Positions 4,601 through 64,000 of a stretch of DNA of 64,000 bases are shown here, piece after piece (positions within the stretch are counted from its first letter, which is position 1; each line of letters starts with the position of its first letter). The stretch is from assembly GCF_030684315.1 (NCBI RefSeq), contig NC_081363.1, forward strand, positions 26,724,116-26,788,115, read 5' to 3'. The notes beneath the pieces are model-generated. The model saw only the letters and a list, made by a program, of their open reading frames with translations. It was not told where the DNA came from and made no database searches. The DNA is from Stegostoma tigrinum. Taxonomy: Eukaryota. Made by a program: the position numbers and the translations under genes.

Positions 4601-4698
4601 ACAGATCGCTTTGTACTGCTGTTAATGCTGTACATGACTCTCATCCCACCCTACTGATAATATTGATGAGTGAGGAACAAACAGCTCTATGACATTTA

Positions 4699-5095
4699 AA
4701 GTTTTAGCAAAGATCTGTAGCTTGGGTTGTGAGCAAAGTTGTTGACTTGCTTGCTGAGCTGGCTTGTTTTCATTCAGCCACTTTGTCACCATGCTAGGTA
4801 TCATCATCAGTGAGGCCTCTGATGGAGCGATGTTGTTCTACTCCGCTCAGAATTTATACTGTCTGGTCTGTTATGGTGAGTGCCGTCATTTCCAGTTTTT
4901 GTTCTGTATGTATACAAAGCCATACGGAACAAAACCAGAAAACACAGCACTCACCATAACAGACCGGACAGTATAAATTCTGAGCGGAGTAGAACAACAT
5001 CGCTCCATCAGAGGCCTCACTGATGATGATACCTAGCATGGTGACAAAGCGTCTGAATGAAAACAAACCAGCTCGGCAAGCAAGTCAACAACCTG
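4699..5095. mobile_element. Palindromic Penelope-derived insertion, family C
   Basis: Inverted arms ~4738-4910 / ~4921-5092; TSD GCTCTRTGACATTTA at 4684-4698 and 5096-5110; hammerhead-like CTGATGA-stem-GTC at 5020-5053. Confidence 0.75.
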
Positions 5096-5180
5096 GCTCT
5101 GTGACATTTATCGTGACTATACCACATTAGCAGCTTAACTGCAATATGTCAACATTGCCAAAGAACAGGCATTTTCTTCA

Positions 5181-5310
5181 GAGATAATGGGAACTACTGA
5201 CGCTGGAGAATCCGAGATAACAAAAGTGTGGAGCTGGATGAACACAGCAGGCCAAGCAGCATCTCAGGAGCACAAAAGCTGACGTTTCGAGTCTAGGCCC
5301 TTCAGCAGAA
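5181..5310 (-). mobile_element. Single-arm Penelope 3' end, family A
   Basis: Same sequence as the 3' UTR of the GIY-YIG element at 55.4-57.0 kb; stops at a mutated hammerhead motif (CTGCTGA...GAAACGTC). Confidence 0.85.
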
Positions 5311-5784
5311 AAAGTTTCTTCTCAGCCTTTTGAGTAATTGGACCACCATTCTCTGTTCTCCTTCTTGAATTCCATCCTTACATACTCCAACACAGCCAAG
5401 CTACTTTTAGCAATAACATTCCTTCCCACCACTTCATTACATCTTAAGTCACAAAAGAGCCTGTCCCTCATTTACTGCCCCTTCCTGACATTATCTTGAA
5501 GTTAGCTTCTGCACCTCTGCCAATGATACCCAAATGTTTCCTCTTCAACTGCCACTGTATTGTTAGATTGCATGTCCAACATGTACCGTCTGCAAAAAGG
5601 CCAATGATATCACTGAGTTGGAAAGTCAGGGGTTCAAGTTCCACTTGAGAGACAAAAACCAAAAACCTAAAATACCACTCTGATGCAGTACTGAAGAAGC
5701 ATCTTTTAGTTAAGACATGAAGCCAAGGACCTGTACCTTTCAGAATATCTCACAGCCCCACTCGGAGGACAGAGAATTAAACTT

Positions 5785-6020
5785 TAAAATCAGGAACAAA
5801 GACAGAAGTTGCTGGAAAAGCTCAGCAGGTTTGGTGGCGTCTAAGAAAAAAAAAATCAGTTATCTGATTTCTGACAGTTCTGACGAATGGTCACTGGACC
5901 CAAAACGTTAAACTGATTTTATTTTTCTTCACAGGTGCTGCCAGACCTGATGAGCTTTTCCAGCAACTTCTGTCTCTGTTCCTGATTTACAGCAGGTGGA
6001 GTTCTTTCAGTTTTTATTTT
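5785..6020. mobile_element. Palindromic Penelope-like insertion, family B
   Basis: Inverted arms AAATCAGGAACA..GCTGGAAAAGCTCA / TGAGCTTTTCCAGC..TGTTCCTGATTT; GAATTAAAC duplicated at 5774-5782 and 6021-6029; hammerhead-like motif 5880-5909. Confidence 0.75.
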
Positions 6021-6534
6021 GAATTAAACCAGTATCCTCAATTTGAATTTAAATTTCTTGAGTTAAACCTGAGCACACGTTGATCACACAATCAAAATTA
6101 ACAAATAAAAAAGAAACAGAAAACAGGTTATGTTGTCATTATCACATCGTGTTAATGGGTGCTTATGTGCAAATTAGTTGTTGCACTTCTTACAAATTAT
6201 TAAACTTCAAAAAGCATTTTATCAGCTGCAAACTGTGGATGGAAGTGCAGTGCATTATAAACAGAATGTGAAAATTGGGAACTTGGTGAAAATAGGAACT
6301 TTGACAAGCAGTGGGTGAACATTTTAACTTTAATGTAGAATTTGAAAAATTAAAAATGAACTAAGAGGGGAATAGAAACTGCCTGTTGTTGCTGATTAGC
6401 TTTAAGAATCCTCTAAATAGAAGCCAATTACTGTCAGCAGGGAACAGACCATTTGCAACTTGCCTCAGGTCTTGCAGCAAAGTCATAGTCTCTCTACCTG
6501 AGCCAGAGGCCCGGTTTTAAGTCCTACCTGCACC

Positions 6535-14990: not shown

Positions 14991-15832
14991 CATGACAGCC
15001 AAAGGAAATCAGTGAACCAGATGGGTTATTATTCCTGACAATTGGCAACCATTATATAGTCAAACTCTTAGTCCCAGGCTGTTACTGAATTCAAATTCCA
15101 CCACCCACCTTGGTGGGATTTGAATTCGTGTTACCAGACCATTACCTTGATTTCTGGATTAACAGTCATCTAGTGCCAACGAAGCGTTGTACAAAATGAA
15201 ATGGGTTGTCTACAACAGAATTCAACAGCCTAATGGTTTTCAAAAATAGTTTTGTGCAAGACTTCCCACAAATAATGAAGCACTCCAGAGGGCCAGATCC
15301 TAACTTGAAAGGAAGCGTTAACCGCCTTAAAAGGAAAAATGCCAGGCACAACAGAAACTCAAGAGATTTCTTTTTTCATACCTTCAGCTGAAAGAAACAT
15401 TGTCGCACACAACAAACAGAAATCAAGCTTGCACTTACAAGTGTGACCCTACACATCCTGACTGGTTCCCCATATCACACACAAACTAGAGCTCACACAA
15501 ACACGTTGTGCTGACCAAACTTGCACCAGCCCCACACATCCAGCCCTGTGCTTGATGAACTACATTGAATCCCAACTCAAGCAATGACTTGATTTTAAAT
15601 AATTCAACCTTATTTTCAAGTCTATCCTTGACCTCACTCCTCTCCATAATCCAAACACCCTTCAAGGTATCTCCATGTTTAACTCTGATCTTCTGGATTT
15701 TCATCGGTCCACCATAAGGGGCTGAAAGCATTGTCCTCAATGTTATAGGCTATGGAACATTCTCTTTGAATCTCTACATCTTCTCCATTCTTACAAAGGT
15801 GGCACTTCAAAATATTATCTTAGGTTGGGCAA

Positions 15833-16049
15833 AGAGATCAAAGTGTGAAGCTGGATGAACACAGCAGGCCAAGCAGCATCTCAGGAGCACAAAAGCTGAC
15901 GTTTTGGGCCTAGACCCCTCTCTGATGAAGGGTCTAGACCCGAAATGTCAGCTTTTGTGCTCCTGAGATGCTGCTTGGCCTGTTGTGTTCATCCAGCTTC
16001 ACACTTTGTTATCTTGGATTCTCCAGCATCTGCAGTTCCCATTATCTCT
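15833..16049. mobile_element. Palindromic Penelope 3'-end insertion, family A
   Basis: ~85 bp near-perfect arms meeting at the hammerhead motif (15922-15949), ~35 nt tail on right arm. Confidence 0.9.
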
Positions 16050-17028
16050 TTGCCCAACCTATTCAGCTTTTGCCATGATATTTCCTTACGTGGTTAGTCT
16101 CAAATTTCGACTCGCTACGTTTCTGGAGGCACTCTCCATCACATTAACGTTAGGTGCTGATACACTGCTCGGTTAGTAGATGAAGCAGCAGCTCAGTCAT
16201 TGCAACATCTATGGACAGCGCGCGCGCCTCCACTAGTTCTATAGGGACGGTGGCAGCCCAGCTCTCAGCCTGCGGCGGCTCAGGGGCTTTTGATTCGCGG
16301 TGTCGGATCGTACAAAGCAGATCGAGCACAGAACAGGCTCCCTGAATCCAGGAGGTGCAGACTTCTCAAGATCGCCCCAGACTCCCACAGATCAGATGCC
16401 CACCGACTCCCACCCCGTGCCACCACGACAGATCAGGAGTGCTCTTCCCCATTCTCCACCAGTCCCTGGCCCCGCCCCTGGATAAGTATCAACATTCCAA
16501 ATTGTAACCAATCCTCTGCGCTCTGGCCAATCACAAAGGCTGAAACATATGACATGAAAAAGGCGCCAGATGGAAGGGGGGCGGGAGGGCTGATATCGAG
16601 ATGTAATTAACACGGCTGTTGTTGCTGAATCTACAGGGACCCACCAATTTGCAGCAAAATCTTGTATCTTTCATTAAATATGCTAGTTTTCCAGCGGATG
16701 GCTCCTGCCTTTTTGTGAGTTTAATGATTTCTTTTGGGAGTTGGGGCGGGGAGGGGAAGAGGAGGAGGGAAATCAGATGATATCCGCGCACATATACACA
16801 AGGACATACAGTTACAAATATTTCTTTAGACCACGCACGCCCCTTTCCAGCTGTGAATCGAGATTCCCCGGTTTTCAAGACCTCGACCCGAGCCCGGGGG
16901 TCGGACTGGGATGGGGAGGGGTCGGGAGGGAATTGCACGATTCCAAGGAGTTCAGCACAGACAAAGAACACATTCCAAACCCCACCACCCCCAAAATCAC
17001 CGGCACACCATCAAAAATAAAACCTCAC

Positions 17029-19000: not shown

Positions 19001-20287
19001 TTCCTATCCCACCACCCTTATGTTCTCCCCTCCCTAACTAGAAAATAACCAGCATTTGTATGACAGTGAAAAGGGAAAAAACTGTTGATGGAAGGGCTGA
19101 AACGAAGGGAACATGGAACGAGGCTAATTGGCAAAATAACTCAACACAGGGGGAAAGCCTCTTCATTCAGCCACTTGGGTTCAGGTCTGGACTCTGAGTC
19201 TGGAGTCACATTCAATTGGGGAATTCAAGAATGAATTAAATTATGAAGGAATTGTTAAACCTGCAGGAGGAGGCCGTTTGGCCGCCCTTGTCTGTACAAT
19301 TAATTGATTAAGTGCCATTCTCCAGCCCTCTCCTTGTAACGCTGCACGTGTTATCTTTCCAGATAATGGTCTAATTCCCTTTGAATGCTTCATTGAACCT
19401 GCTTCCAGTGCACACTCAGGCAGTACCTTTGAGGCCCTAACCTCTGTTGGGGGGCAAAAAGATTTCACCTTCCGTATTTGAAAAGGAAGAAGGCAGAGGT
19501 ATTGGCTTTTGGTACGCTGCTCCTTCAGAGAACAGAGGTAGACATGAGGGGCCAAATGGTCTCCTTCATTGCTGTGACCATTTTATGATTGTGTACAGCA
19601 TCTTTCCCAACCTTTGAATGCTCCAAAGTTCTTCACTATCGGAGCAGAACTTTTATAGTGATTCTTGTAATGCAGGCAAATAATGGAACCAATTTTCATG
19701 CAGTGAGGTAACACAAAAATGTGAATTAGATAAATGATGAACAATTAGTTTAGGGTGTTGTTGAGTGATCAGTGTTGGCCATGACTTTGGAACTCCTCAT
19801 GTCTTCTAAAGTGGTCATTGTTTAATATCCAGTTCAAAAATGTTACCGCCTGACAGTGTCATACTTTTGTCCTGCATCTGTTTCTTTGCTGTTTTGTGGG
19901 AGTTAGGCATTACTGGCATGGCCACCGTTTGTTGCCCATCCCTAATTGCCCTTGAATGGAGGACAGAGGACAGTTAAGAGTTGACCACGTTGCTTTGAAT
20001 CTGGAGTCATTAAGCAGACCAGGGAAGGATGACAAGATTTCCTTCCCTAAAGGAAATTAGTGAACCAGATGTGCTTTTATGACAATTGACAATTGTTATG
20101 TTGTTGCCATTAGGCTAGTTTTAATTCAAGATTTTTATTTACTTCAGACTTTGCCATCTTATGGTAGGATTCAAACCTGTTTCCCCAGAACATTAACCTG
20201 CAGTTTTCGACGACTAGTCCAGCAACATTAACACTGCCCCATCTCTCCATAGTGGTGATATCAAGTGTCAACAGACAGCAGTTACTG

Positions 20288-20489
20288 AAGATAACAAAAT
20301 GTGAAGCTGGATGAACACAGCAGGCCAAGCAGCATCTCGGGAGCACAAAAGCTGATGTTTCGGGCCTAGACCTAGGCCCAAAATGTCAGCTTTTGTGCTC
20401 CTGAGATGCTGCTTGACCTGCTGTGTTCATCCAGTTTCACACTTTGTTATCTTTGGATTCTCTAGCATTTGCAGTTCCCATTATCTCAG
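20288..20489. mobile_element. Palindromic Penelope 3'-end insertion, family A
   Basis: 16 bp TSD AGCAGTTACTGAAGAT 20277-20292 / 20490-20505; centre GGGCCTAGACCTAGGCCC. Confidence 0.9.
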
Positions 20490-23400
20490 AGCAGTTACTG
20501 AAGATTTTGGATTTGGAGTCACATCCTTCTGACTCTAGGGAAAGAGCATTATCACTGAGCCATGGCAGACAACTTGGAGCACCTCGTCTTCCCCTTCCCT
20601 TTCGTGCCTTGGGCACTGATTTCAAATTCAATCCTTCCAGCTGTTTCCCTTGACCTCCTGTCTCCCTTCGACTCTATATCAATTTTATAGACGTTCAAAG
20701 CAAATTGTCTTCATAGTCTATTGTAGGTAGCAATTCAGAATCACAGGTGAGGAAACAAAATTTTGTTTTCTTTTTAAACTGCTTCTACAGAACAGAGTTG
20801 AAGTGGAGAGGGATAGGAACTGTGGGAAAGAGAATGAACTAAAATATGTCAAAAAGGAAGAGAAGAGAAGTATTTCAAATAAAGTGAAGTGGCTATTGTG
20901 AGCAGACTGCATCAATGGTCGCAGTTGAGACTGCCGATGTCCCCATCTTGTGCTTGCTGGCATTATGTGAATGTTATCACTTTGACAGGAGGAGTACTCC
21001 AGTAATCAAGTCCCACTTCTCCATAGGATGTCCTGAAATTGTAAATATTCAACTGAATCACCAAGATTTTTAAATTTACAAATATCTTGATCAAGAAAAA
21101 GACTTACACCTAATTTTTAATCAATAAACACATAAATGTATTTATTATGAATAAACTTAGTCTGTAGAAAAAGGCAAAATGCGTTATTAACTCCTACAAG
21201 GTAAGCTTTGACCTTTAAACCCTAGCACGTACATGTTCATGCACAGAGGGGACAGGACATAGAATTCAGGGTTATTATAGCAAAAATGAAAATCTCATCA
21301 GGAGTCCTAACCTAATGGACACAAATGGAGTTCAGCAAGAAAAGTTGGGTGGACTGTTTGAGTGAATGGTATCAAGATTAGTCATGTCACTAAACGTGTG
21401 CCTTATGAAAATGTGGCACTAACAACAGCCATTTTACTGTATAATTTAAAATATCCACATGCATTCATCATAACTATAAAACCATATTCAATATTTCCCA
21501 AACTGTATTTAAGACAAAAATATCCCAGGATACATGGTGCCAAGGCATGAAACATGAGCTGCTTGCTACTAAACAGTGTTGACTTATATGCAGTAGTGAT
21601 TTTAAACAATATATAATCTGATTTATGTGAAGAATGCTGCTAAAGGCCTCTTGAAGTTTCCATTGAAGACTGATTCTCAATGTTCCACTAGGCCTTTTCT
21701 TGATTGATCAAGACAAGACTAATTGTTTGGAAGCCATCTTCCCCTCCCAGTTATAAATATTCTAGTTGCCAGTTGTACAATGAGAGTGGATTCATCCTTG
21801 GTTGTATTTTTGATATTGATCTTGACTTTTAACTTGTATTTTTCTTTTTGATTTTTTTTGAGGTGTTTTGAACCCATGTGCCAGAATTCTGCCATTAATA
21901 TGTTGGAACTGTTTTAAAACACTAAGAGAACAATCTGGAACATCTCATTGTTTCATCAATTCCATCTCATTGCTTCTTCCTTGCATTTCTCCCCACGGGG
22001 GTACCTCCTAGTTTCTGCTTGCTTCGGCATGTTGTACATTTCAGATTTGCTGCAGGATCTCTTAGTAAGAACACTGTTAAAATGAATAATTATTGTTACT
22101 TTCCCTCTAGAATGAAAGATTGGAATGTATTCTTGGTATTTTTAACAATGTGTTTTTGTGAAAATCATTTGTAGGTTTTTTTAAAAAGTAACTCAGAATT
22201 GTGCTTTGTATTCTACAAAGCAATATATTCTATATGTTATTCTATATAATAACATGGATGTTACATTGTTTTAATTGCTTTAAAAGCTCCCTTTCTTTTC
22301 ATAGTCATTGGAGAAAGTATTAAGTGCATGTTGTTAGGCTTCCTAGAAAAGGCAGAGTTATTGACAAGTACACTAGCAGCTAGCAATAATTTGGCATGAA
22401 GTATATGTTGTTACTTAGCATTTTTAATTAATTTTAAAGTATGAGCAGAGACTGGTGGATTTGCAGTATATCCGAAATGGCTTTTTAATTCTGGCAGGTA
22501 CTGCCTGACAACATGATTCATTCAAAATAATAACTCAACTGGCAATACATTTTAAAAATGGTTCTAGAGAACAGTCCAGCCTTTTGCACAAGTAAGAAAA
22601 AAAGGCTGAAAATCATTTTGTTCAGTTAAATGTTTTCATGATGACAGAATTCATAATTACCTTTTTGCATCTTCTGGGAAATCTCCTTTCACGTAAAACA
22701 AAATCTTCATTGTTTTACCTTCTTAACTGTGAAAAGGATGTTTGTAAATTTCAGTAAAATGAACCATAATAAATGCTGGAAATCTGAAATAACATTAATA
22801 GAAAATTCAGTAAGTATACAGCTGGCCTGTCAGCACTTGTCAAGGTACAGAATAACTTGTTTTCCAAATTTATTTCCTGCTAATTAGTCTGGGATTTTTA
22901 AATCTGATTGGCCTTTCCCTTGAGATTTACCTAGCTTTGTCTAGATGAGAAGGTGTTAATGTTGTGATGCCTACAACCGTGTGAGACTGTCTAAGTGAAC
23001 TGGTATTTTTTTTTGATAATTTTGCCTGTTTTCAGTGTCTAACCCTTGGTGGTGTGTGTTTTCGGCAAGTTTGGTTTTTAAATTTCAAGTTTGCTTTGTA
23101 ACAAAGTTTCCTAGCTAGTTTGCATACTATTATTTCACTTTTTTTGCAAGAAATTATTCCTTTCCTAGTTTTGTTAGAGTCATTGCTGTCATTGTTCAGT
23201 CAATTCAAATGAATGTTATGCACTTTTTTAAAAGTAACCTCACTGTTCCACCATGCCCCCACCCCAAACAAAATATTGAGCTTTAAATTTAATGGTTTTG
23301 TGCAGAGAAGCTGCACTAGTGTACAATTACTAGGAACAATGACTGAACAGATGTGAACATGAATTTACATTAAGGAAAATATACTGGTATCTGTAATATG

Positions 23401-28495: not shown

Positions 28496-29829
28496 CTTGG
28501 AATAGCCACTCTTTCAATCACTCCCACTAGCACTTCCCCCAAGGTACTGCCCAGTGGTCAGCAGTAGACTTACCCAAATCATAAAGTAACTTTTGGATCG
28601 TATGTTGGAGTTTAGTGGTCTAGTTAAGGATTTGTTTGTATTTTGAAAGAAAAGGAATGTTTTTTTCTTTCAGAACTTTGTACGTTAAAAACATTTGTTT
28701 CTTAACATCAGCTTTACTCGATTTGAAATCTGTGTCCAGAAGACAAGAATCTTGTGACTTTTTAAACATCGAATACAGGGCCACCAATTGCTATAAATGA
28801 ACGTGTATTAAAAAGAGGTAGACTATTGCTATTGAAAAATGTATTGGGTTAACATGATTGCTTGAACAATCTCTAGGTTTCTATCGGTTTCAAGTAAAAC
28901 AATTCTACATGAGAAGACACCAGGGAATTAAATGCCACAAGTTAGTTTTGCATGCATTTATAAAACTTTGTAGAAGTTGTACTCATTTGCATGGCTGGCA
29001 TGCACATAAAGTACTGAAACAGAGGAAACCGATCCCACACATTAACAATTCAGTACTTGTTTATTCCCTGCATAGTTCTCTACATGAAGTAACAATGAGA
29101 TAGATGCTCTAACTCCTGTATTACAAGTACTTCAGTTGGTAGCCTGTTGTTTCTACATGGAGACACTTTAATTAAATGATACAAAATACATTTTCGATCT
29201 TAAGATGACTTCAGAAGTTATCATTGAGGGGATGAATGTACCTCCTTAGTTTTGATTATTATGTTTATCTAGTTTTACAAAGATCCAAACAAACACTTAG
29301 AAACCAACTACAGAACAATTCTACAATGGACAAATTGTAAGCTGGGAGATTTAGACCATTTGCAATATTGCCATTGTGTGCACAAGCCATTTGATTTAGC
29401 AGTAATAAGATTTTAAAAGGCAAAATACAGACTTTAAGCTCCTAACCGTAAATGATGTCAAGTAACACAGCATTCATACTGTTCTCATTAATGATTAATT
29501 TTTAAGAAATAACTATATAGTTAGTTCTTGTCAGCTGTTCGTGGCTGTTGCAACAATGTGAGGTTATTGAAAGCACTGTCAAACTCAGCCACATATATAG
29601 GTCTCACCTATAAATCAGGTGATGATAATAGCTGACAACCTTGCTTCTTTGGAGTTTGCTGAAGAATTGCATTCAACAGAAATCTGTAGATTATTTCTGC
29701 CAAGTGAAGTCAAATTTTCTGGTAGCAGTGAAGCACACAGCAAATGCTAAAACTAAATTTAGAATGCACATAAAAATTATGGGACCAAAACTGAATATTG
29801 AAAATTTTAAATCCAGCAGAACAATACCC

Positions 29830-29976
29830 GAGATAGTAAGAACTGCAGATGCTGGAGAATCTGAGATAACAAGGTGTAGAGTTGGATGAACACAGCAGGC
29901 TAAGCAGCATCAGAGAAGCAGGAAAGCTGACGTTTTGGGCGTAGACCCTTCTTCAGCTCTACACCTTGTTGTCTTA
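29830..29976. mobile_element. Asymmetric palindromic Penelope insertion, family A
   Basis: TSD AGAAYAATACYCGA 29818-29831 / 29976-29989; long arm ends exactly at the CTGAAGA box. Confidence 0.85.
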
Positions 29977-32331
29977 GAATAATACTCGAACTATGTTTCT
30001 TATTAAATGACTTTAGAGCACCAAGGTGACTTGGTTACATCTAAGCCCATCTGACTAGAACGTTAGCACATTCACAATTTCCAGTCCTATAGATGAATTA
30101 TTTTCACTTGGGTATTGAAAACAGCAAGATACTTCTGAGTCTACATAATACTGGATATTGTTAAACTGGTTTAAACCAAATGTTCACACTCATTAAAAAC
30201 TTTCTTATAAGGAAGTTTTGTAATAATAGAAGCAGCAGCAAAACCAGCACCATATTTATTACAATTGTCTATATATCAGTTAAAACACATAGGTATTCTG
30301 TATGAGCTGGGGTTCAAAACAATAGCACAGGTCTTAAGTGCTTAAATGGCTTTAATATACATATTTTTTAAAAAAGCAAAACATTCACAGCTGTCTTATT
30401 GGCACCATATTATAATATTAGCTTATGGTAACACCATTACATTCATTTTACATGCAGCAATCAGCCACACATAAATAAACAAAACATCCCCTGCACAGTC
30501 TGCTGTTTCCTTTCAGACAGATGAATGATCCAAATTTATGTCCCATGTAGGAGAAAATGAAGGATTAACTGCCTCAGCACACATCAATAATCCTTCATTC
30601 CTCAGCTATTCATACTACAGAGTCAGGTCAGCATTTGAGCAGCACTTGATGACATTGCTACAGAAATATTTCAGGGTAGTCTATATAGAATCAATACACT
30701 TCAAATGAAGACACTTCAAATGACTCCCTCTTTGGCCATATTGTGCAACAAATACAGGTAATTTCCCAAAATATAGTTTTCAACATCCAGATGGAGTGCA
30801 GAGAGGCAACAGAAGTACCCTCTAGTAGACGCATTAGATGCATGCTGGACCTACCTTGGTTATTCAGCACCTCTTGGAAGTCAGTTAGACTCCTTTTTAT
30901 ACGTTTTATATAATCGTGTCAGGTTAAGTCTGTGACAGTTGTCTTGTGACAGTTTTCTTTTCCAACTCCAATAATCAAGTCACAACAGGAAGTGAGATGA
31001 ATGTTGCACAGAATTTAATTTATCCTAAGAGCAACTGAAATTTCCTGGCATAAGGTAATAGGCTGCAAATCAGGATTTATATAAAATTACTTGAGTAAAA
31101 AGATCTCTCCTTGTGGTACGATCACTGAAATGCTCTTCACTAAAAATATAAAAACAATTTACATTAGAATTTATAGAAAACCATGTAGAGAGTGCAGTGT
31201 CATTCTGTAATTTTTCACTGCAGTCTGCTGCTCTGCAAAGTGATACTTTGCCTGGATCACAATAAGCTGACTTTCCCCTGTCAGTGCTTTTGTGAAGGAC
31301 TTACGATTATAATTTAAAATCTGATTTGTCTTTCAAATACTTTTGATCAGGTTACAATGCATGATAAATGGCTACTAGTTTAGTACAGGTTAATCTTCGT
31401 TTGACCATCTTAATGCAAAGTCCAGTGCTGTTTAAATTTGTATTTAAAAATTAACTAAACAGAAAATAAGTGATTTTGAATCTCGCTTCTCTACACAACT
31501 AATAATCAAGACTCACAATTGATACATTAATCACCCAAATATGATTGGCCTGTGACTGCTGGTGAACTGAGTCACACATTATGTACAGAACCTGGTGATT
31601 TTATATTTAAAACAAAAGGTTTACCAGCTCTTCCAGTTTATCCAAAATGACTTTAGTTAAGGGATAGCCCTTTATTAAGTGAATACATGAATTTACAGTA
31701 AATTATGTTCCTTTGCTACATTCTGGCAAGGGAACTGAAGTGAACACAGGTTAAAGTTTTGTGCAAACAAAAAATAAGGAAATGACATTAGTAGATGGTC
31801 AAATAATCTTTATTCACAAGGCCATTTTGAAAACACACCATTTCCAAAAATGATTGGTGTGAATGTAATCTGTGTTTTTTGAATCAACCGAAATAGACAT
31901 TTTGTTAGAAATAGAAAAACATTTACTGGATCTCATTTTCAGTCACAGTTAAAAACTGAAGTGCAAAAGACAAAAATATAAGCTTAAAGCATCTGGAAGG
32001 ATAAAGAATGAAAACCCTTGCCATCAAAGTAGCCTTAAAAGAGCTCAGAATTCCCATTGGAAAATAATGAAAATTTCTGAAATGTGCACGCTGTGAGGGG
32101 TTACTGGAGTGATTCATGGTGATTGACTCTTAAACATTAACAAAATCCAAACAATGTCAGCCTACACAGTTGTCTGCAGGATTTGTACCATCCCAAATAA
32201 CATAATTTTAAAACCACAATGAAATTTCAGGTGCAGCCAGATATTTCGTTACAGATTACAACAAATTAAGCATTCATGCTCTGAATCTTGATTTGGTGTT
32301 AACTTATCATACCCTAAAGTGACAGGTCCAT

Positions 32332-37300: not shown

Positions 37301-37470
37301 TCTATCCGGGCTGTTGCCCGGGGAACCAGGGCACAAGAGATAACCTCCACCACCAGCCTCTTGTGTGGACTCCAACGCGCCTCTAGCGCCTGGAGGACCT
37401 CACTTCCCTTCACATGCTCTGCCCACTGGTGCAATCTAATTGAGTCACAAACTCAAAGCTACCCTTGATT

Positions 37471-38155
37471 AAGATAATCAAATGTGAGGCTGGATGAACA
37501 CAGCAGGCCAAGCAGCGTCTCAGGAGCACAAAAGCTGACGTTTCGGGCCTAGACCCTTCATCAGAGAGGGGGATGGGGAGAGGGTTCTGAAATAAACAGG
37601 GAGGGGGTGGAGGCAGACTGAAGATGGCTAGAGGAGAAGAGAGTATGGGTGGGGAGGTAGGGAGGGGATAGGTCAGTCTGGGGAGGACGGATAGGTCAAG
37701 GGGGTGGGGTGAAGTTAGTAGGTAGGAAATGGAGGTGTGGCTTGAGGTGGGAGGAGGGGATAAGTGAGAGGAAGAACAGGTTGGGACGAGCTGGGCTGGT
37801 TTTGGGATGCAGTGGGGGGAGGGGAGATGCACATTCTCCCCGTGCATCAAGCCACACCTCTATTTCCTACCTACTAACTTCACCCCACCCCCTTGACCTA
37901 TCCGTCCTCCCCAGACTGACCTATCCCCTCCCTACCTCCCCACCCATACTCTCTTCTCCTCTAGCCATCTTCAGTCTGCCTCCACCCCCTCCCTGTTTAT
38001 TTCAGAACCCTCTCCCCATCCCCCTCTCTGATAAAGGGTCTAGGCCCGAAACGTCAGCTTTTGTGCTCCTGAGATGCTGCTTGGCCTGCTGTGTTCATCC
38101 AGCCTCACATTTGATTATCTTGGAATTCTCCAGCATCTGCAGTTCCCATCATCTC
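37471..38155. mobile_element. Young, large palindromic Penelope insertion, family A
   Basis: ~275 bp of near-identical inverted arms; 15 bp TSD CTACCCTTGATTAAG 37459-37473 / 38155-38169. Confidence 0.93.
37537..37564 (-). ncRNA. Minimal type I hammerhead ribozyme motif with intact core
   Basis: CUGAUGA-A-GGG(UCUAGG)CCC-GAAAC-GUC^AG; palindromic ACGU in place of helix III, as in dimeric Penelope hammerheads. Confidence 0.8.
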
Positions 38156-38204
38156 TACCCTTGATTAAGTTTTCTACATTTTTGTGTCAGACTCATTCGG
38201 AACA

Positions 38205-38420
38205 GGAGTAAACAGAAATCCCGGGAGAAACTCAGCGGATCTGGTAGCATCTGTGGAGAGAGAAACAGAGTTTGATGATTCAAGTCCAATATGACTTCTT
38301 AGTTTTTCAGGGTCATACAGACTCAAATTCCTTTTTCCACAGATGCTGTCAGAACTGCTGAGTTTCTCCAGCACTTTCTGGTTTTATTTGATTTCAGGCA
38401 TCCGCAATAATTTGCTTTCA
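38205..38420. mobile_element. Older palindromic family B-like insertion
   Basis: GGAGAAACTCAGCGGATCTGGTAGCATCTGTGGA / TCCACAGATGCTGTCAGAACTGCTGAGTTTCTCC inverted arms. Confidence 0.65.
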
Positions 38421-41641: not shown

Positions 41642-42387
41642 TAGCTTTCTGGCACTTTAGGTTCATGCATGATGGATGGGTACAGACTGTACTTCTGTTG
41701 GTGCATGCAAAGTCACACACCAGCAGGAATCAGCACTTTCGGGACAGGAAAAGGAGTCAGCTGAGCCGTCAGCAAACATACTTAGAAAGTCACTGTGCCT
41801 TGGCATTGTGTCACTTCAATGGTGCTTAGTGCTACATCATACTAACACTTGCCTCATAAAATTTGAACATCAACATTCCATGGTGCTTCACAGAAACTTT
41901 GCAGTTGTAGGAGAGGTGGCCACAAGCCCTGTGGAAAAGATAGGTTTTCAGGAAGCTATTAAAGGTGGAGATTGTGTTAGGAGGAGTGTTTAGACAATTA
42001 GACTGTGATGGCTGGATATGACTTCTGCTGCCATTTTTGGAAAAGCATTCAAAGACGGTATGCATTGAAGAAAGAAAGGTGGAAAATTCATGAGCTGTTG
42101 CTTATAGCTGAACATGGTTTCAGAGGAAGGATGAAATGAGTCACTGAAGAGGTTTGTGTTGCAGGATTAAGATTTTAATCTGAGGAAACAGAAAACTATG
42201 GAATCCAATTAGGATAGGGCTAGCTGCACTCAGACATTGAATGGCATGCCACTTGCGTTACTAGACTGGATAAACCAGAAAGTGTGGGTTGATATCCCAC
42301 ACGGCAATTTAAGGATTTATCAATCAAATCGCCCAGGAAGCAGTTGCATTGTTGTCCAAACAACAGAGCAAGCAGTCTACTGTTCGT

Positions 42388-42571
42388 GATAATAAAATGT
42401 GAGTCTGGATGAACACAGCAGGCCAAGGAGCATCTCAGGAGCACAAAAGCTGACGTTTAGGCCCGAAACGTCAGCTTTTGTGCTCCTGAGATGCTGCTTG
42501 GCCTGCTGTGTTCATCCAGCCTCACATTTTATTATCTTGGATTCTCCAGCATCTGCAGTTCCCATTATCTC
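42388..42571. mobile_element. Palindromic Penelope 3'-end insertion, family A
   Basis: 15 bp TSD CAGTCTACTGTTCGT 42373-42387 / 42571-42585; centre CTGACGTTT|AGGCCCGAAACGTCAG. Confidence 0.9.
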
Positions 42572-43759
42572 AGTCTACTGTTCGTACCCGATCTGGCCTA
42601 TAGGTGACTCTAGTCGCATTCTGATAAGGATGAATGTTAATTGTCCTGTGAAATAACTAAATGAGCCCAGCAGTTGTATCAACGTTTCTCAAGCCAAGGA
42701 GGAACGGGCAACAGGTATAAAGCTAGGGAGAATAGGCAAGGAGCGTATTCAACTTGCGGATCTGGAGGCAGCAAAGGCATGACTAATAATTTCACTTCAT
42801 AAAGACTGAGTCATTGGCAGAGTCAGCGTGACTGGGAATGTCTTGGATGTCAGAATCGTAACAGATCTTAGCTATTACCAGAATTACTAGTTAAAAAAGA
42901 AAGCTCAACAAAAGAAACAGAAGGTTAGGAAGTTGAACTGAATAATCTTTACAAACGCTCGTTTTTCAATAGAACTGAAAGTGACGCCCGCTATTGAAAA
43001 TGATTGTAATGACACTTAATCAAAAATCATAAATGCTCTTTAATAGCAGACTGGAGTTTTGAATATCACCCAATTGTTTCCTGGCATACTTTTACAGGTG
43101 ATGCTAGCCCAGCAGTTCATGGCTGAATCATTAAACTATGTCCTTTCACCACGTCTGTGCCAGTCTGTCATTCATCAACACACATAGAGCCCAGAACATT
43201 GATCAGTCAACCACCGAGTGAGAAACCCATTTTTGAACAGAATTTTTCGATAATTTAAAATAATGTGTATAATTTATGGCACATAATTACCCAAAAGACC
43301 TGCCGCTGGTCATTTGACAAACGCCAACTCCTCCATTCTATTGAAATATACAGCAAAGTTGCTGACTCTAAAACACAAACTCCAGGAAATTATGTTTCTA
43401 GCTTAATGTGAAATGGGTGGTTTGGGCAGTGTGATGCGCTGTTCACTTCTACAATATATTGTATGCAATCCGGGAGTAGGCTACTCTGTATTCACCAAAC
43501 AAAATCCTTCAAATTTTCGTTAAAAGAAGCATCTAACTCAAAGGCAGACCCCCACCCCCGGGAACCCTGTAAGGAGAAGGTCACTACGACTTGATCAGTA
43601 AGAGCGAGTGCTCCTCACAAACGTCCCCCACCGCCCATTCCAGGTTAATGTAATATCAAAGAGAATCCGTAGTCTTCTACAGAAAATTCTAACTCGAAAC
43701 GTAGCACTGGATAAATGTTAACCCCGGGGCAAGAAAAATATAAGTTCCAGGAATAATTT

Positions 43760-54330: not shown

Positions 54331-55442
54331 CAGCTTCAAGGAAAGGGGGCAGAGAGAGAGAGAAAGCCTGAAATAACCAGTGATCTGCTGCTCTGCACGG
54401 TCACCCATCATTCTCACTTGAGCGGGCTAAAGGGAAGGAGGGGTTATGGTTATTCGGTGTTAATTTCCTCCAATTGTATAAAACAATAAGATGCTTCCTT
54501 TCAAGATTTACATCTATAGGCATTTACTTTCTGCAAGTGAAAGTATCATATTTTTTACTCACACGATAACCTTTCTGGTCGGTAACAGAACATTGCCAAT
54601 GCAGTGAGTTGAAAGAGGGAAGGTTTTGTTTTGATGATGGAAGTTTAGAATGGAGAACGTGGTTCTGGATCTCGGGCTGCATGTGTTGTGGAACTGTGAG
54701 CCCGTCCCTTGGTGTAGCATGTAGCAGAGTTAGTCGGGTGATCTTTTCTAGACTGTTTAAAGTTGCTGTTGGTAGCCAGCTTGAGGATGCTGTCAGAGGG
54801 ATCTCAATGTTGGTTTAAGGCAGGAACTGTACAGACTTGGAGGTCAGTTCTGAATTTGCTGTTCCTGGTTTTCGGGCTACGCTGCTGCAGACTGATTTCC
54901 CCCTATTTAACCTGTTGTGTTATCAATAGAATGATTGATATTGGTTTTTTTAATTGCCAAGTGTTTGGAGGTCTGAAGGGGCTTTACAAGATAAGTGCTG
55001 GCAAGAATGTTTTTCTTGAGGGAGAATCTAGAACCAGGAAATGCACTTAAAATGATGGATTTCCCATTTTATAACAGAATTTCACGGAGTCATTAATCGT
55101 TGGTATTCTCTTCCTATAAGAGCAGTGGGTCATTGAATATATTCAGGGCTGAGTTCAATTGTTTCTTTTTTCTTAATCAACAGGTGAGATGAGGGTAACA
55201 GAACCCACAAGGAAAAGGCAGTTAAGGCCGCATCAGATCCATGTTTTTGAATAGCTGAGTAGGCTTGTTAGTCTTAATGGACTAGCCCTGTTCCTGTTAA
55301 TGATCTCTTAATAACTATGTAGAAATACAATTCTGAATATTGTTGTGTTTCAGTAGGATCACCTCTCATTCTTCTAACTTGTAATGAATATAGGTCCAAA
55401 TTGCTCAACCTTCCCTGCTGATAAGACAACGTTCATCATACT

Positions 55443-57030
55443 GAGATAGTGGGAACTGCTGATGCTGGAGTATCTGAGATAATAAGGCGCAGAGCTGGAT
55501 GAACACAGCAGGTCGAGCAGGAAGGCTGACGATTCGGGCCTAGGCCCTCCTTCAGAAATGGGGGAGGCAGACAGACTGGTCAAAGAGGCAGGAATGGAGC
55601 CAGTAGGTGGGGAGGTAACATTTCCTGTGGTTGCAGGGAAAAGTGCTTCTGTCTCCTTCCCAAAATCCACAAACCTGACTGCCCTGGTCGAAACAACTGC
55701 TGTAGTGACATCAATCGCCTAAACCTCTCCACCCCTCTCACCCACTCCAACCTCTTTCCCCCGCAGAACATGCAGCCCTCAGCTCCCTCCACTCCAACCC
55801 TAACCTCACACAAAACCAGCGGACAAGGGAAGCGCGGTTGTAGTGCGGCGCATGACCACTACGTTGCCGAGGCCAGATGCCAACTCTCTGACACCACCAC
55901 CTACCGCCCCCTTGATCATGACCCACCCCTAAGCACCAAACCATCTCCGACACAATCCACAACCTCATCACCTCAGGTGACCTCCCACCCACAGCCTCCG
56001 ACCTCATTGTTTCCCAACCCAGCACCGCCCACTTCTGTCACCTTCCCAAAATCCACAAACCTGACTGCCCTGTTTGTCTGCCTTCTGGACGGACCACTCT
56101 CTCCATGACTCCCTTGTCTGCTCCACACACTCTTTTCTATACCACCCCCCCCACCACACCCAGCACTTTTCCCTGCACCTGCAGCAAGTGCTAAACCTGC
56201 CCCTATACCTCCCTCAGCCCCATCCCAGGCCCCAAAAAGACTTTCCACGTCAAGCAGATGTTCACCTGCACATCTGCTAATGTGGTATCCTGCATCCATT
56301 GTACCCGTTGTGGCCTCCTGTACATCAGGGAAACCAAGCGGAGGCTTGGGGACCACTTTGCAGAACACCTACACTTGGTTTGCAGTAAACAACTGCACCT
56401 CGCAGTTGTGAACTATTTCAATTACCCCTCCCATTCCTCAGATATGTCCACCCTGGGCCTCCTGCAGTGCCACGTTGATGCTAAACGAAGGTTGCAGGAA
56501 CAGCAACTCATATTCCGCTTGGGAACCCTGCAGCCCAATGGTATCAATGTGGATTTCACCAGCTTCAAAATCTCCCCTTCCCCAACCGCATCCCAAAACC
56601 AGCCCAGTTCGTCCTTCCTCCCACCTATCCCCTCCTCCTACCTCAAGCCACACCCCCATTTCCTACCTACCAATCTCATCCCGTCCCCTTGACCTGTCCG
56701 TCCTCCCTGAACTGACCTATCTCCTTCCTACCTGCCCACCTACATTCACCTTTACCGGCTTCATCCCTTCCTCTTTGACCGGTCTGTCTCCTCTCCACCT
56801 ATCTTCTCTAGCCATCTCCTATCTGCCTCTCCCTATTTATTTCAGATACCCCCTTCCCTTTCCCCATTTCTGATGAAGGGCCTAGGCCCGAAATGTCAGC
56901 TTTCCTGCTCGTCTGCTGCTTGGCCTGCTGTGGCACTGCTGGAGGCCCAGGGTGGACATGTCTGAGGAATGGGAGGGGGAGATGAAATGGTTGGCCTGCT
57001 GTGTTCATGCAGTTCTACACCTTGTTATTT
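55443..57030 (+). mobile_element. Rearranged Penelope-like element (Neptune-like) with GIY-YIG endonuclease remnant and inverted 5' arm
   Basis: FTCTSANVVSCIHCTRCGLLYIRETKRRLGDHFAEH..EQQLIFRLGTLQPNGINVDF (56258-56570); LPKIHKPDCPGR motif; hammerhead 56870-56897; 13 bp TSD TTCATCATACTGA 55432-55444 / 57029-57041. Confidence 0.92.
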
Positions 57031-57044
57031 CATCATACTGAAAC

Positions 57045-58090: not shown

Positions 58091-58149
58091 TTTTTTCTTG
58101 TTGATCTCTACACTTATTTATTTATTTATGCTATCTTTTGGGATGTTTT

Positions 58150-59170: not shown

Positions 59171-59609
59171 GTGCTGTGTACAATAAATAGGAGAACAAGT
59201 ATCTTTTATTCACTTCAGGTAATGAGGGTGTTGTTGACTAGACCAGCATTCATTGTCCATTCCTAATTGCCCGTAAGGCAGAGTCAACCACATTGCCGTG
59301 GGCCTGGAGTCACATGTAGGCCAAGCCAGGCAAGGTAAGGATGACCAGTTCCCTTCCCTAACGGACACTAGTGAACCAAGAGGGTTTATCTGACCATCGA
59401 CAATGGATTCATGGTCATCATTAGGCTCTCAATTCCAGATTTATTTTTCTTTTTTGCATTTACTGAATTCAAATTCCACCATCCGTTGTGGTGGGTCTCT
59501 GGAACATTCTTGGGTCTCGGGCTTAAAAGTCCACTGATAATACCGTTAGGCCATCACCGCCTCATCCTACCTTCTATTGTGAGGTAGATACAAAATTTTT
59601 GTTCAAAGC

Positions 59610-59767
59610 AAACGCAACAAGAACAAAATTGCTGTAAAAGCTCAGCAGGTCTGGCAGCATCTGTGGAGGAGAAAACAGAGATAACGTTTCGTGTCCGGTG
59701 ACCCCTCCTCGCCCTTTCCAGCAACTTAGTTTTTGTTCCTGATTTACAGCATCCGTTGTTCTTTTGC
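59610..59767. mobile_element. Palindromic family B insertion
   Basis: 12 bp TSD TTTGTTCAAAGC 59598-59609 / 59768-59779; left arm ends inside the hammerhead CUGANGA box. Confidence 0.75.
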
Positions 59768-60104
59768 TTTGTTCAAAGCTCCTGTCATTCCTTTGCTTCC
59801 CCTTTTTAATTCCAGTGTCACCATTTAAGGAGCAAACACTCACTTTATTTTTATATTGCTTTTACTGTATCATATTGTATTTGTTGCTAGTATTTGCTCT
59901 ATTGCAATCTCTCCAACTTTTAATTTATCTTTTTCATGGTTTTCAAACATCTCTCAATATTTTGGGATATGCTAATCTTTCTTTCACTTTGATATTATTC
60001 TTGTGTTCCTTTTAAAGCAGGGTTGCATCCTTCTGATGTTAACGTTCTTGTGCAACAATGCACTGTCAAAAGACAGGAAATATAGATAATTAAATGCTTG
60101 AGTG

Positions 60105-63100
60105 CTCCTACATAGAAGATAGGAGGAGGCCATTCAGTCCTTCTCACCTCCTCCACCATTCTTCACGATCCTAACTGGTCTTCCAACTTAATAGCCTGAT
60201 CCTGCTATCTCCCCATTACCTTTGATCCCATTTGCTCCAAGTGCTATGTCTAGTCGCTTCTTGAAAATGTTCACTGTTTTGCATCAACTACTTCCTGTGG
60301 TAATGCATTCCACAGGCTCACCACTCCCTGGGTGAAGAAATGTCTCCTCATCTCCATCTTAAATAGTCTATCTCAAATCCTCTTAGTGTGGGCCCTGGAT
60401 CTGGAAACACCCACCATCGGGAACGTCCTCCCTGCATTTAACCTGTCCAGTCCTGTTAGAATTTTATAAGTTTTGATGAGACTGCCCTGCACCCCCATTC
60501 ATCTGAACTCCAGCGAAAACAATCCCCACCTAGTCAATCTCTCCTCTCCTCATATGTCAGATCCGTCTGGTAAATCTTCGCTGCACTCCCTTAAGCAACA
60601 GCATCCTTCCTCAGAAAAGGAGTCCAAAAGTCTGCACTATATTACAGGTGTAGCCTTACCAAGGCTGTGTATAACTGCAACAACACATCCCTGCTCCAGT
60701 ATGCAACCCCTCACAATGAAGGCCAGCATAGCATTTGCCTTCTTTACCACCTGCTGCACCTGCGTGCTTGCCTTCAGCAACTGGTGCACAAGGACACCTC
60801 AGGTCCTGTTGTACCCTCCCCTCTCCCAATTTACACCCATTCACAAAATAATCTGCCTTTTTTTTTCTTCTTCCAAAGTGAGTAACCTCACATTTATCCA
60901 AATTATACTGTATTTGCCATTGATTTGCTCACTCATCCAACTTGTCAAGATCATCTGAAGGATCTCTGCATTCTTGTCACAGTTCACCCTCTTACCCAAC
61001 TGAGTATTACCTGCAAACTTGGAGATGTTACTTTTTTGTTCCCCCATCCAAATCACTAATATATATTGTGAATAACTGGGGTTCCAGCACCGATTCGATA
61101 TTCTTTGTTTTTTCCTCTGCCAATCAATTTTCTCTCCCTCTTAATACACTTCCTCCAATCCTGTGTGCTTTAATCTTGCAATTAATCTGTTGTGTGGGAC
61201 ATTGTCAAACAAAGTCCCAATATACTGCATGGAGTTGACAAAGAGGAACTTGTAGTTACATCCTCCTAGAATTCCAGCAGATTTGTCAAGCATGATTTCC
61301 CCTTCGTAAATCCATGGCTACTCTATCTGATCCAGCCATTGATTTCTAAATGCTCTGCTATAAAATCCTTGACAAAGGATTTGAGAATTTTCCCCATAAT
61401 GATGTTAGCCTCACCGATCTGTAATTTCCTGCTTTCTCTCTACCTCTCTTTTTGAATATTGGAATGACATTAGCCATCCTTCAATCTGCAGGGACTACTT
61501 CGGAGTCTAGAATCCTGGAAGATATCCACAAATGAATCTGTTATTTCTGGAGCTATTTCCTTAAGTACTCTGGGATGTAGATTATCAGGCCCTGGGGATT
61601 TATTGGCCTTCAACCCCAACAACCTTCCTGGCACCATTTCTCTACTAGTATTGATCTCCTTCAATTCTTCCTTCTCTCTAAATCTTGCATCCTCCAATAA
61701 TTCTGGTATCTGATTTTTTTTGTCCTTTTTTTTTTGTGAAGACAGAACAAAAGTATATATTCAGTTCCTCAGCCATTTCTTTGTCACCTATTGTACATTC
61801 CTCAGTTTCTGCCTATAGGGGACCTACATTTGTCTTTATCAATCTCCTTCTGTTCACGTACCAATAGAAACTCATAGCATCAGTCTTTATGTTCCCTGCA
61901 AGTTTACTTCTGCGGTCTATTTTTTCCCTTAAGCAACCCTTAAGTTTTTGCCGAATTCTAAGCTGCTTCCAATCCTCAGATGTATTTTTTTTGGCCAATC
62001 TGTATGCTTCTTCCTTGGATCGGATACTATTTCTAATTTCTTTTTGTAAGCCGTGGATTAGCTGTCTTACCTATTTTTTGTTTTCTTTTTTTGTTTTTGC
62101 GACAGGAATAAACAGTTGTTGCAGTTTTCCCCCATGCATTCCTTGAATGTTTGCGAATGCCTATCTACTGTCATCCCTTTTTTAAGTAACTTTTCCCTAA
62201 TCTATCGAGGCCAACTCACACCTCGTACCCTGTAGCTTCCTTTATAAAGGTTCAGCACCCTTGTCTCTGAATCAATACCCTCACTTTCCATCTTGATTTA
62301 AAAAAAAAATTCTTCTATCATGTTATCATCACACTCCCCCGCGCACCCCCCCCCCCCCAAAAAAAAGGAGATCTCGCACAGCTAGATTGGCAATGATTCC
62401 TTTCTCATTACACAGCACCCAGTCTAAGATGGCCTGCTATCAAGCTGGTTTCTCCATGTATTGATCAAGTAAACCGTCCCATGTACATTCCAGGAATTCC
62501 TCTGCTATGGTGTTATAGCTAACCTGATTTGCCCAATCAATGTGTAAATTAAAATCACTGACAGTGCCTTATCCCATGCATCTAATTTTCTGTTTAATGC
62601 CATTCTTAACATCACTGCAGTCTGGGGGTCTGTATATGATACCTAATGCTTTTTTGCCCCTTGGTATTTCTCAAATCTACCCAGACAGACTCCAGTTGTC
62701 AGAGCTGTTATCCTTTCTCACTACTGTTAATTTCCTCTTTAACCAGCAATGCCACTCCACCACCAACTTTCTTTTTGCCTGTTGTTCCTAAATACTGAAT
62801 ACCTGGGACATTCAGTTTCCATCCCTAGTCACTTTGTAGCCATGTCTCTGGGTACAATATAATTGGGATTACATTTACAATTAGTTGATCCACTTTATTG
62901 CAGATGTTCTGCACAAAGCCTTTAAGCTTGTCCTTTTAACATTATTTGTCTCCTTAATTTTGTTTGAACAGCCCTGTTTGAATCTTGACCTTGGTTTCTC
63001 AGCCTATCACTTTTTTTTTCTTTCCCTCTGAGTCTTACATAGCTTCTCATTCCCCTGGCATTTTAGTTTAAACCTTCCCCGGTGGCTCCAGCAAACACAC

Positions 63101-63530
63101 TCTCTTCTCCCTAGGTCATCAGCCCCAGTCCTGCCCATGTGTAGACTGTCCAATTTGCACAGGTCTCACCTTCCCCAGAAGCAGTCCCAATGCCCCAGGC
63201 ATCTGAAACTCTTCCCCTCGCACCTCCCACTCCCAACAGCATCTTTTCAGTCACGTAGTCATGCAGTATATCCTATCATTTTTCCTCTGACCGGCACGTG
63301 GTATCAGAGTAATCCTGAGATCACTACCTTTTTTGTGATCAGATTTCTTCACTTTCCTCTTAGCTGCCTGTATGCTGCCTTTTAGGACCTCCTCCTTCTT
63401 TTTTCCCCACCCATGTTGTTTTTACTGACATGTACCATGACCACTGGCTGTTCACCCTCCCCCCTTCGGAATCCCCACCCTCCCCCTTAGGAATCCTGTA
63501 CCTGCTTTGAGACATCCTTGATCCTGCTAG
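60105..63530 (-). mobile_element. Long decayed CR1 LINE (ORF2 plus esterase-type ORF1 remnant)
   Basis: KSPGPDNLHPRVLKE, KCEVTHFGR in ORF2; GEGEQPVVMVHV.. SGNH-esterase-like ORF1 remnant near 63420-63465. Confidence 0.85.
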
Positions 63531-63534
63531 AGAA

Positions 63535-64000
63535 CCCAAGATAACAAAGTGTGGAGCTGGATGAACACAGCAGGCCAAGCAGCATCTCGGGAGCACAAAA
63601 ACTGCCATTTCGGGCCTAGACCCTTCTTCAGAGAGGGGGATGGGGAAGAGGGTTCCGGAATAAATAGGGAGAGAGGGGGAGGCGGACCGAAGATGGATAG
63701 AGGAGAAGATAGGTGGGGAGGGGATAGGTGAGGACGGATAGGTCAAGGGGGTGGGATGAGGTTCGTAGGTGGGAAATGGAGGTGCGGCTTGAGGTGGGAG
63801 GAGGGGATAGGTGAGAGGAAGACGATGTTAGGGAGGTACGGATGAGCTAGGCTGGTTTTGTGTTGCACTGGGGGAAGGGGAGATTTTAAAGCTTGTGAAA
63901 TCGACATTGATACCATTGGGCTGCAGCGTTCCCAAGTGGGATGTGAGTTGCTATTCCTGCAACCTACAGGTGGCACTGCAGGAGGCCCATGATGGATATG
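63535..64000 (-). mobile_element. Penelope-like element 3' end (family A), continues beyond window
   Basis: End of GIY-YIG coding region, pyrimidine-rich 3' UTR and hammerhead motif with GUC>GGC change at ~63604-63631. Confidence 0.9.

Follow-up and report, generated by a model that had tools for sequence, protein, structure and literature searches.

Endonuclease-bearing (EN+) Penelope-like elements (PLEs) are described as insertions with an inverted, 5′-truncated copy and a tail of 30-40 bp that is often found at one end only (PMC8557442, Craig et al. 2021); PMC2377424 and PMC8969392 give the same layout. A like layout with target-site duplications (TSDs) of 8-10 bp is reported in PMC3846280 (Arkhipova et al. 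2013), which documents one empty site in a rotifer and proposes self-priming on an antisense template. The origin of the inverted repeats and of the tail is called unresolved in PMC8557442, PMC11167929 and PMC3846280. For the Poseidon element PAc of Anolis carolinensis, PMC11167929 (Frangieh et al. 2024) describes cutting and extension of both strands in vitro, two internal starts of reverse transcription that border the tail downstream of the hammerhead, and a predicted dimer. In L1 twin priming, both target ends prime on the RNA, and the products have one inverted arm, are flanked by TSDs and show microhomology where the pieces are joined (PMC2912911). Here, we study palindromic PLE insertions in a stretch of 64,000 nucleotides from Stegostoma tigrinum (contig NC_081363.1, positions 26,724,116 to 26,788,115), which we call the window.

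Canonical EN+ PLEs and the window copies are alike in having an inverted 5′-truncated copy, a one-sided tail, a TSD and a hammerhead motif in the terminal repeat (PMC8557442, PMC3846280). Unlike the canonical insertions, most window copies are cut down to two ends and their TSDs are on average longer than 8-10 bp. This reduction makes them resemble miniature inverted-repeat transposable elements (MITEs), and such hairpins can pass for MITEs or microRNA precursors. From their sequence, the copies are almost certainly EN+ Penelope-like retrotransposon insertions, i.e., a known kind of insertion in a shark genome. Regarding their formation, paired target-primed reverse transcription (twin priming at two RNA sites) is the best model and probably the correct one. 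The window contains about one double-ended miniature copy per 6 kb, a high density. Since the two priming points, the stagger and the join can be read from every copy, a census of one genome can decide between models.

Anatomy of the insertions

Window copies were located by self-comparison, an inverted-repeat scan and direct reading of the letters. In the following, kb labels (4.7, 5.8, 15.8 ... 59.6 kb) denote positions within the window. A first-pass annotation had listed nine insertions in which two element 3′ ends point outward and one arm carries an additional tail. We find this design at 9/9 listed sites. The list is correct in that all nine are real, but it omits a tenth double-ended copy as well as the single-arm, possible split-pair and 63.5 kb copies introduced below.

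Family A insertions show the layout as follows. At 15814..16061, the short arm lies on the minus strand (15839-15920) and the tail arm on the plus strand (~15919-16048), with an inverted duplication at 15821-15838/16044-16061. The copy at 20277..20505 (TSD 20277-20292/20490-20505, 16 bp) has a minus-strand short arm (20288-20371) that shares 5 nt with the TSD and a plus-strand tail arm (20372-20487); 2 additional bases precede the right TSD. At 37459..38169 (TSD 37459-37473/38155-38169, 15 bp), the short arm (minus, 37471-37828) comprises 360 nt and reaches up to the end of the open reading frame (ORF), the tail arm (plus, 37847-38155) comprises 275 nt plus the tail, and the arms are 99% identical. 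The copy at 42373..42585 (TSD 42373-42387/42571-42585, 15 bp) consists of a short arm at 42388-42461 (minus) and a tail arm at ~42461-42571 (plus). Two further insertions belong to a second subfamily of family A. The one at 29818..29989 (TSD 29818-29831/29976-29989, 14 bp, 2 mismatches) has its tail arm on the minus strand (29830-29956) and a short arm of merely ~22 nt (~29954-29975). The other is long (55432..57041; TSD 55432-55444/57029-57041, 13 bp) and contains three inversion joints: its tail arm (minus, 55443-55647) is followed by ORF pieces on the plus strand (55646-56932), an inverted endonuclease piece (56930-56992) and the short end (56988-57030).

Family C is represented by the insertion at 5774..6029 (TSD 5774-5782/6021-6029, 9 bp) with a short arm on the minus strand (~5787-5864) and a tail arm on the plus strand that includes a hammerhead-like motif (5880-5909) and the tail (~5989-6020). 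In the family C insertion at 59598..59779 (TSD 59598-59609/59768-59779, 12 bp), the short arm (minus, 59610-59710, ~100 nt) and the tail arm (plus, 59711-59767, ~29 nt plus tail) are not nested in each other. The tenth double-ended copy (38205..38420, i.e., 38.2-38.4 kb), unlisted so far, is an old family C copy with the tail at the right and no recognisable TSD. The family B insertion at 4684..5110 (TSD 4684-4698/5096-5110, 15 bp, 1 mismatch) has its tail arm on the minus strand (tail ~4699-4737) and its short arm on the plus strand (end ~5095), with arms of ~170 nt.

Tail lengths had been given as ~35-40 nt, which holds for family B (~38 nt) and nearly so for family A (34 nt), while family C tails are shorter (22-32 nt), such that the long end of C is not a single fixed point. 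Full family A tails have an identical last base in 7/7 copies. Family A short ends lie within ~3 nt of each other in 5/6 copies; the arm at 15.8 kb is 2 nt shorter. Inner (5′) ends vary: most are found 76-101 nt upstream of the short site, but the short arm at 29.8 kb reaches ~22 nt, those at 37.5 kb reach 275 and 360 nt, and the copy at 55.4-57.0 kb extends over >1 kb. Many arms stop within or just beyond the hammerhead and most extend past its cleavage site, which is in line with an uncleaved RNA template. Among the 9 simple window copies, the tail arm is longer in 4, the short arm in 2 (37.5, 59.6 kb), and 3 are equal or unclear; thus, there is no rule for a leading or trailing arm. The centre inserts at 37829-37846 (18 nt) and ~5865-5875 are inverted copies of neighbouring sequence. 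Small inverted templated inserts of this kind are expected from polymerase-theta-type end joining.

Beside the double-ended copies, single arms are present at 0.5, 5.2, 12.6, 27.2 and 44.75 kb. The 5.2 kb arm is a family A copy with tail (5181..5309, minus strand) and a doubtful TSD (score 7, p ~0.03). Another family A copy (63525..64000, minus strand) includes the 3′ end of the ORF and stops ~13 nt into the tail; its other end is beyond the window. At 48225-49185 and 50697-52697, we observe old outward family C ends with one tail per pair (48.2+49.1 and 50.7+52.6 kb). These two candidate split pairs are possibly double-ended insertions that were interrupted later, with TSD p-values of 0.09 and 0.28 that are not significant. 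The fragments between the paired ends are presumably LINE-like. Double-ended copies with two tails or without a tail were not found in the window.

Target-site duplications

TSDs were identified by a boundary-anchored search and compared with a null set of 1497 random flank pairs, for which the best score is 10. The annotated pattern, i.e., eight direct TSDs of 9-16 bp and an inverted one at 15.8 kb, is found as stated: direct TSDs flank 8/9 listed copies, with lengths of 9, 12, 13, 14, 15, 15, 15 and 16 bp. Six of the eight score 12-16 and thus above all null pairs; the weaker ones are those at 5.8 kb (score 9, p ~0.003) and 29.8 kb (score 8, p ~0.01). Over 12 copies, the TSD length averages 13.8 bp (median 14.5). 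At 15.8 kb, the duplication is inverted, exact and 18 nt long, and 5 of its nucleotides also belong to the element end. Its left flank closes with a 7-nt match to the tail end (15814-15820), a heptamer with a frequency of 1.7e-4 of positions. When the empty sites of 8 insertions were rebuilt, no uninterrupted second copy was found within the window. Microsatellite targeting is not seen at the 8 TSD-bearing window sites.

Element identity and families

The three families had been taken to be dissimilar. This holds for family B, which aligns with neither of the others, but A and C are homologous across their whole 3′ ends (local score 60-62 vs. a shuffle maximum of 33-35; 0/500 shuffles), which leaves two lineages. 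The family A end is contiguous with a coding remnant of a reverse transcriptase (RT)/GIY-YIG element, from which it follows that the 3′ ends face outward. The plus-strand stretch 56171..56626 is a broken coding remnant of a CX4CxxC linker plus GIY-YIG endonuclease with 82.6% identity to residues 322-469 of protein P0001 and continues into the 3′ untranslated region and a hammerhead-like motif (56870-56897). The frame at 56.2-56.6 kb matches annotated proteins of Rhincodon typus (82%) and Stegostoma tigrinum (77%), and RT-region pieces at 55.6-56.1 kb match relatives. P0001 itself contains an RT followed by GIY-YIG (Pfam GIY-YIG 23.2 bits, cutoff 22.6; RVT_1 22.7 bits, below the cutoff of 29.6). 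The reading frame of protein P0002 continues through the family A end, so that hairpin sequence and ORF belong together and the sense strand is known. The family A ORF is broken in the window, and Pfam searches with the window fragments alone gave no match for the PLE remnant.

The window remnant and P0001 both have a CX2-5CxxC linker, as do 45/47 relatives that show the YIG motif. This linker is a mark of the Neptune/Nematis clades of PLEs (PMC8557442). Judged by linker motif and C-terminal GIY-YIG, family A is assigned to the Neptune/Nematis type; for family C, the assignment is made only via its 3′-end homology to A. Family B, known from one copy with ~200 nt of 3′ end and no ORF in the window, appears from its alignments to be a lineage separate from A/C. 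It may be Poseidon-like; in the Penelope/Poseidon clade, RT and endonuclease come without the zinc finger of the linker.

Minimal hammerheads occur in PLE repeats (PMC4209133). With our own descriptor, we obtain 9 matches in the window, 8 of them inside A or C copies, compared to a mean of 0.9 in 30 shuffles; the family B motif is visible by eye only. An Rfam scan reported no hammerhead; it gave 11 matches, each to a miRNA hairpin model and each under the gathering score of that model. When 7 end segments were folded as RNA, none did better than shuffles (z -1.4 to +1.1), so that we claim no structure for the start sites. A full-length copy, in which a tandem direct pseudo-long terminal repeat would lie upstream of a full ORF, was found neither in the window nor in the 7 outside loci described below. 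The PDB sequence search with P0002 returned nothing significant, and the exact search of bacterial/archaeal genomes with the family A tail gave 0 matches.

Related loci outside the window

A profile search (18 relatives) of bacterial/archaeal genomes provided 7 loci (L001-L007) on eukaryotic-looking contigs of metagenome-assembled genomes (MAGs). We observe that these are animal-like contigs with Neptune-type retrotransposons inside two bacterial MAGs, probably host DNA that was binned in error. Their family is of Neptune type with a protein ~50% identical. Three copies with both ends carry one 53-nt tail each and have TSDs of 17, 15 (2 mismatches) and 13 bp; a fourth double-ended copy from a different family has one tail and a TSD of 12-15 bp. 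For comparison, 3/775 null pairs score >=12 and 4/775 score >=9. Among the remaining copies, those in L004 and L005 are tailed and run off the contig on the far side, L003 3242-4494 is single-armed with a tail and no TSD, L001 ends 50 nt short of the short site and L007 is one diverged end. The distance from the hammerhead cleavage position to the short end is 67 nt in this family and 66 nt in shark family A, and the short ends of both are TTATCTT.

Two side observations concern other repeats in these loci. L002 6054-6981 follows the design of the Penelope insertions: it is a head-to-head repeat with a tRNA-like head (by eye), a one-sided ~50-nt tail and an 11-12 bp TSD. ARAGORN finds no tRNA in it, and its end does not resemble the Neptune ends significantly (scores reached by 121 and 11 of 500 shuffles). 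Based on this one composite copy, it may be a short interspersed element (SINE) moved by a Penelope-like protein. L003 1679-1937 and 2721-3217 are near-perfect palindromic repeats without relation to the Neptune end.

Evaluation of the priming model

Under the preferred model, an RT/GIY-YIG protein would bind its RNA just past the hammerhead and cut both target strands, as shown in vitro for anole PAc. Given the TSD geometry, the two nicks would be ~9-17 bp apart and leave 3′ overhangs. One target 3′ end would then prime where the tail ends, its counterpart at a site 34-53 nt upstream, with one start site per strand within one event, as the one-tailed copies suggest; a few bases of pairing between target and RNA may aid this priming without being needed. 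Both cDNAs would stop independently, often at the hammerhead, before host end-joining links them, leaving the short overlaps or small templated inserts seen at the centres, and gap filling would yield the TSD. Here, we infer the polarity of the stagger, the pairing within one complex and the repair at the centre. Target-primed reverse transcription would account for 3′ ends that stay constant while the 5′ truncation and the TSD length vary.

Exactly one tail is found in 14/14 double-ended copies (10/10 in the window, 4/4 in L002, L003 and L006). If each end chose its site independently, this outcome would have a probability of at most 0.5^14 = 6e-5. Furthermore, the arms of several copies are not nested. 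At 59.6 kb, the short arm covers 103 nt vs. 29 nt for the tail arm, i.e., ~75 nt of the short arm are absent from the tail arm. The short arm at 37.5 kb (360 nt) has ~85 nt beyond the tail arm (275 nt), and in L002 2818-4212 the tail arm consists of ~30-40 nt of tail only and shares nothing with the 1.37-kb short arm. At 29.8 kb, the situation is reversed.

Next, we consider the overlap at the short site, i.e., the bases shared by TSD and RNA at 10 junctions, where a mismatch at the boundary voids the strict count. The pooled test left out the copies at 5.8 and 59.6 kb (ambiguous alignment), 15.8 kb (inverted) and 38.2 kb (no TSD) as well as the SINE-like L002 copy. Overlaps per junction are 5, 3, 3, 0, 0, 4, 6, 3, 2 and 0, summing to 26 nt (lenient) or 19 nt (strict) compared to 7.0 nt when the real targets are permuted (p 4.6e-4, strict). 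For family A of the window, both sites together give p 0.008. At the long end, the overlap is 6 nt across 5 junctions (p 0.03), counted inward only since the N-termini of relatives gave no RNA sequence beyond the tail. Of the individual overlaps annotated for family A, AAGAT, AAG and GA are present, while 'CT' shrinks to 1 nt unless the RNA continues with T, and the 42.4 kb short end has no overlap. Target/RNA overlap is enriched at the short site yet dispensable, and the annotated guidance by microhomology is right as a tendency but not as a rule. The enrichment could alternatively stem from repair joining or from nuclease preference.

Several observations weigh against the model. The first-pass selection was itself based on the design and contributed 9/14 one-tailed copies; the five found outside that list give 0.03 on their own. 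Overlap is zero at 3/10 (lenient) or 5/10 (strict) short junctions, and within window family A alone the short-site enrichment is marginal (p 0.06, strict). According to PMC11167929, the start sites used by PAc do not differ between the strands, and it initiates at a site without homology to the cut DNA. The claim of two fixed sites, although part of the best-fitting model, does not cover the 63.5 kb copy and L001, which end off both start sites, nor the long ends of family C, which differ by ~10 nt. A clear TSD is lacking for L003 3242-4494 and for at least 5 window copies, all of which have one arm only. The shark and the distant family do not align significantly past the hammerhead (118/500 shuffles), and the window holds no intact ORF and no empty orthologous site. 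Finally, the 15.8 kb inverted duplication is not produced by twin priming alone; it needs a fold-back or a later template switch and fits either a fold-back that slips across the tail or a template switch during later replication.

These results have to be related to other routes to a palindrome. Self-priming on an antisense transcript would create hairpin DNA, from which an endonuclease cut keeps the tail at one end before integration with TSD. It has been put forward for head-to-head palindromes in PMC3846280, the tail is attributed to endonuclease resolution of an intermediate in PMC8557442, and it predicts one tail per copy along with private variants common to both arms, as found at 37.5 and 42.4 kb. 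Against this, the arms of L002 2818-4212 have no shared sequence and the stretch common to both arms is only 22-29 nt long at 29.8 and 59.6 kb, such that the hairpin model needs extra deletions for non-overlapping arms. In addition, it was later shown that RT starts at the tail borders, with sense RNA as template and the cut target DNA as primer (PMC11167929). We thus consider self-priming unlikely. Much the same can be said of single priming at the tail end with a cDNA fold-back that is copied outward and joined by microhomology near the short site, which is improbable as well. It accounts for the 15.8 kb inverted duplication (slip between two TTATCT repeats and copying into the target), for the short inverted stretches inserted in the middle of the 5.8 and 37.5 kb copies and for the short-end overlap. 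It needs, however, a short arm inside the tail arm, whereas the short arm reaches further 5′ at 37.5 kb, 59.6 kb and in L002, and non-nested arms rule out a simple fold-back. A later flip between the arms could save it at 37.5 kb, hardly at 59.6 kb or in L002. Moreover, it gives no reason for the in vitro use of the short site as an RT start (PMC11167929).

That both target ends prime on separate RNA-protein complexes, each picking its start site independently, is very unlikely given the one tail in all 14 double-ended copies, even though either strand uses either site in vitro (PMC11167929) and the arms differ at 36/727 aligned columns. Outside CpG, this divergence (20/727) is no higher than within TSDs (1/70; Fisher p 1.0, low power). 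Movement of MITEs by a DNA transposase, which the hairpin appearance, the long inverted arms and the TSDs recall, has next to no probability. A fixed centre with constant TSD length, the MITE signature, was looked for across copies; instead, no two copies have a common centre or length, the ends are asymmetric and the TSDs range over 9-16 bp. Centres from ~20 nt to >1 kb are not those of MITEs, and the hairpin sequence belongs to an RT/GIY-YIG element, of which it forms the 3′ end. MITE identity is therefore refuted for the window copies, and the annotated view of Penelope-like retrotransposition products is upheld by the RT/GIY-YIG remnant, the variable centres and the TSDs.

Paired target-primed reverse transcription can be taken one step further, i.e., programmed twin priming might be the normal Penelope pathway. 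Here, one complex with two RT active sites and one RNA would split the start sites between the strands of a ~15-bp 3′-overhang cut. In this view, the tail merely separates the two sites, and shark and distant animal would have kept the inner one at a TTATCTT motif ~66-67 nt beyond the hammerhead. We put this forward tentatively and rather doubt it at present. If true, it explains inverted repeats, one-sided tail and TSD in one step and replaces the self-priming and endonuclease-resolution explanations.

Other features of the window

An ordinary DNA transposon, in contrast to the Penelope hairpins, is seen at 40054-41643, where 24-nt terminal inverted repeats surround a Tc5/Tigger-type transposase remnant (Pfam HTH_Tnp_Tc5, E 0.002). 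At 52930-54910, inverted repeats of >200 nt (77% identical) enclose 1.5 kb of GC-rich sequence, and a 4-bp repeat may flank the whole; the inner frames have no Pfam or atlas match. The minus strand carries the TMEM251 coding exon at 32335-32835 (Pfam E 5e-67). A weak DUF4611 match (E 0.07) lies in a CpG-rich stretch on the plus strand (17443-17835) and may represent GON7, a neighbour of TMEM251 in other vertebrates.

Comparison with known systems

With Neptune/Nematis elements, the window remnant and its relatives share the C-terminal GIY-YIG with its CX2-5CxxC linker. This linker has been linked to microsatellite targeting, in contrast to the 8 window TSD sites. Under the paired-priming model, PAc and the window copies are alike in that both strands are used, the starts border the tail past the hammerhead, and arms extend beyond the cleavage site, i.e., the template is uncleaved (PMC11167929). 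The clade of PAc (Poseidon) differs from families A and C. Priming of both strands at two sites is thus largely a corollary of the 2024 biochemistry (PMC11167929). In its available text, that study describes neither the pairing of two sites per insertion nor TSD formation, and the pairing of one site per strand along with a modest microhomology bias goes beyond that text. The available portions of PMC5753468 and bioRxiv 10.64898/2026.07.22.740005 contain no description of these hairpins. Our literature search, with the older subscription papers (2004-2006 Penelope work) outside its reach, yielded no statement of paired PLE twin priming and no account of shark hairpins.

In L1 twin priming, the second site varies and the arms do not overlap. 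L002 2818-4212 matches the L1 geometry as outlined in PMC2912911. That paper says of the second site no more than that it is internal, whereas in the insertions studied here it is a set site beside the first, and one arm usually repeats the sequence of the other.

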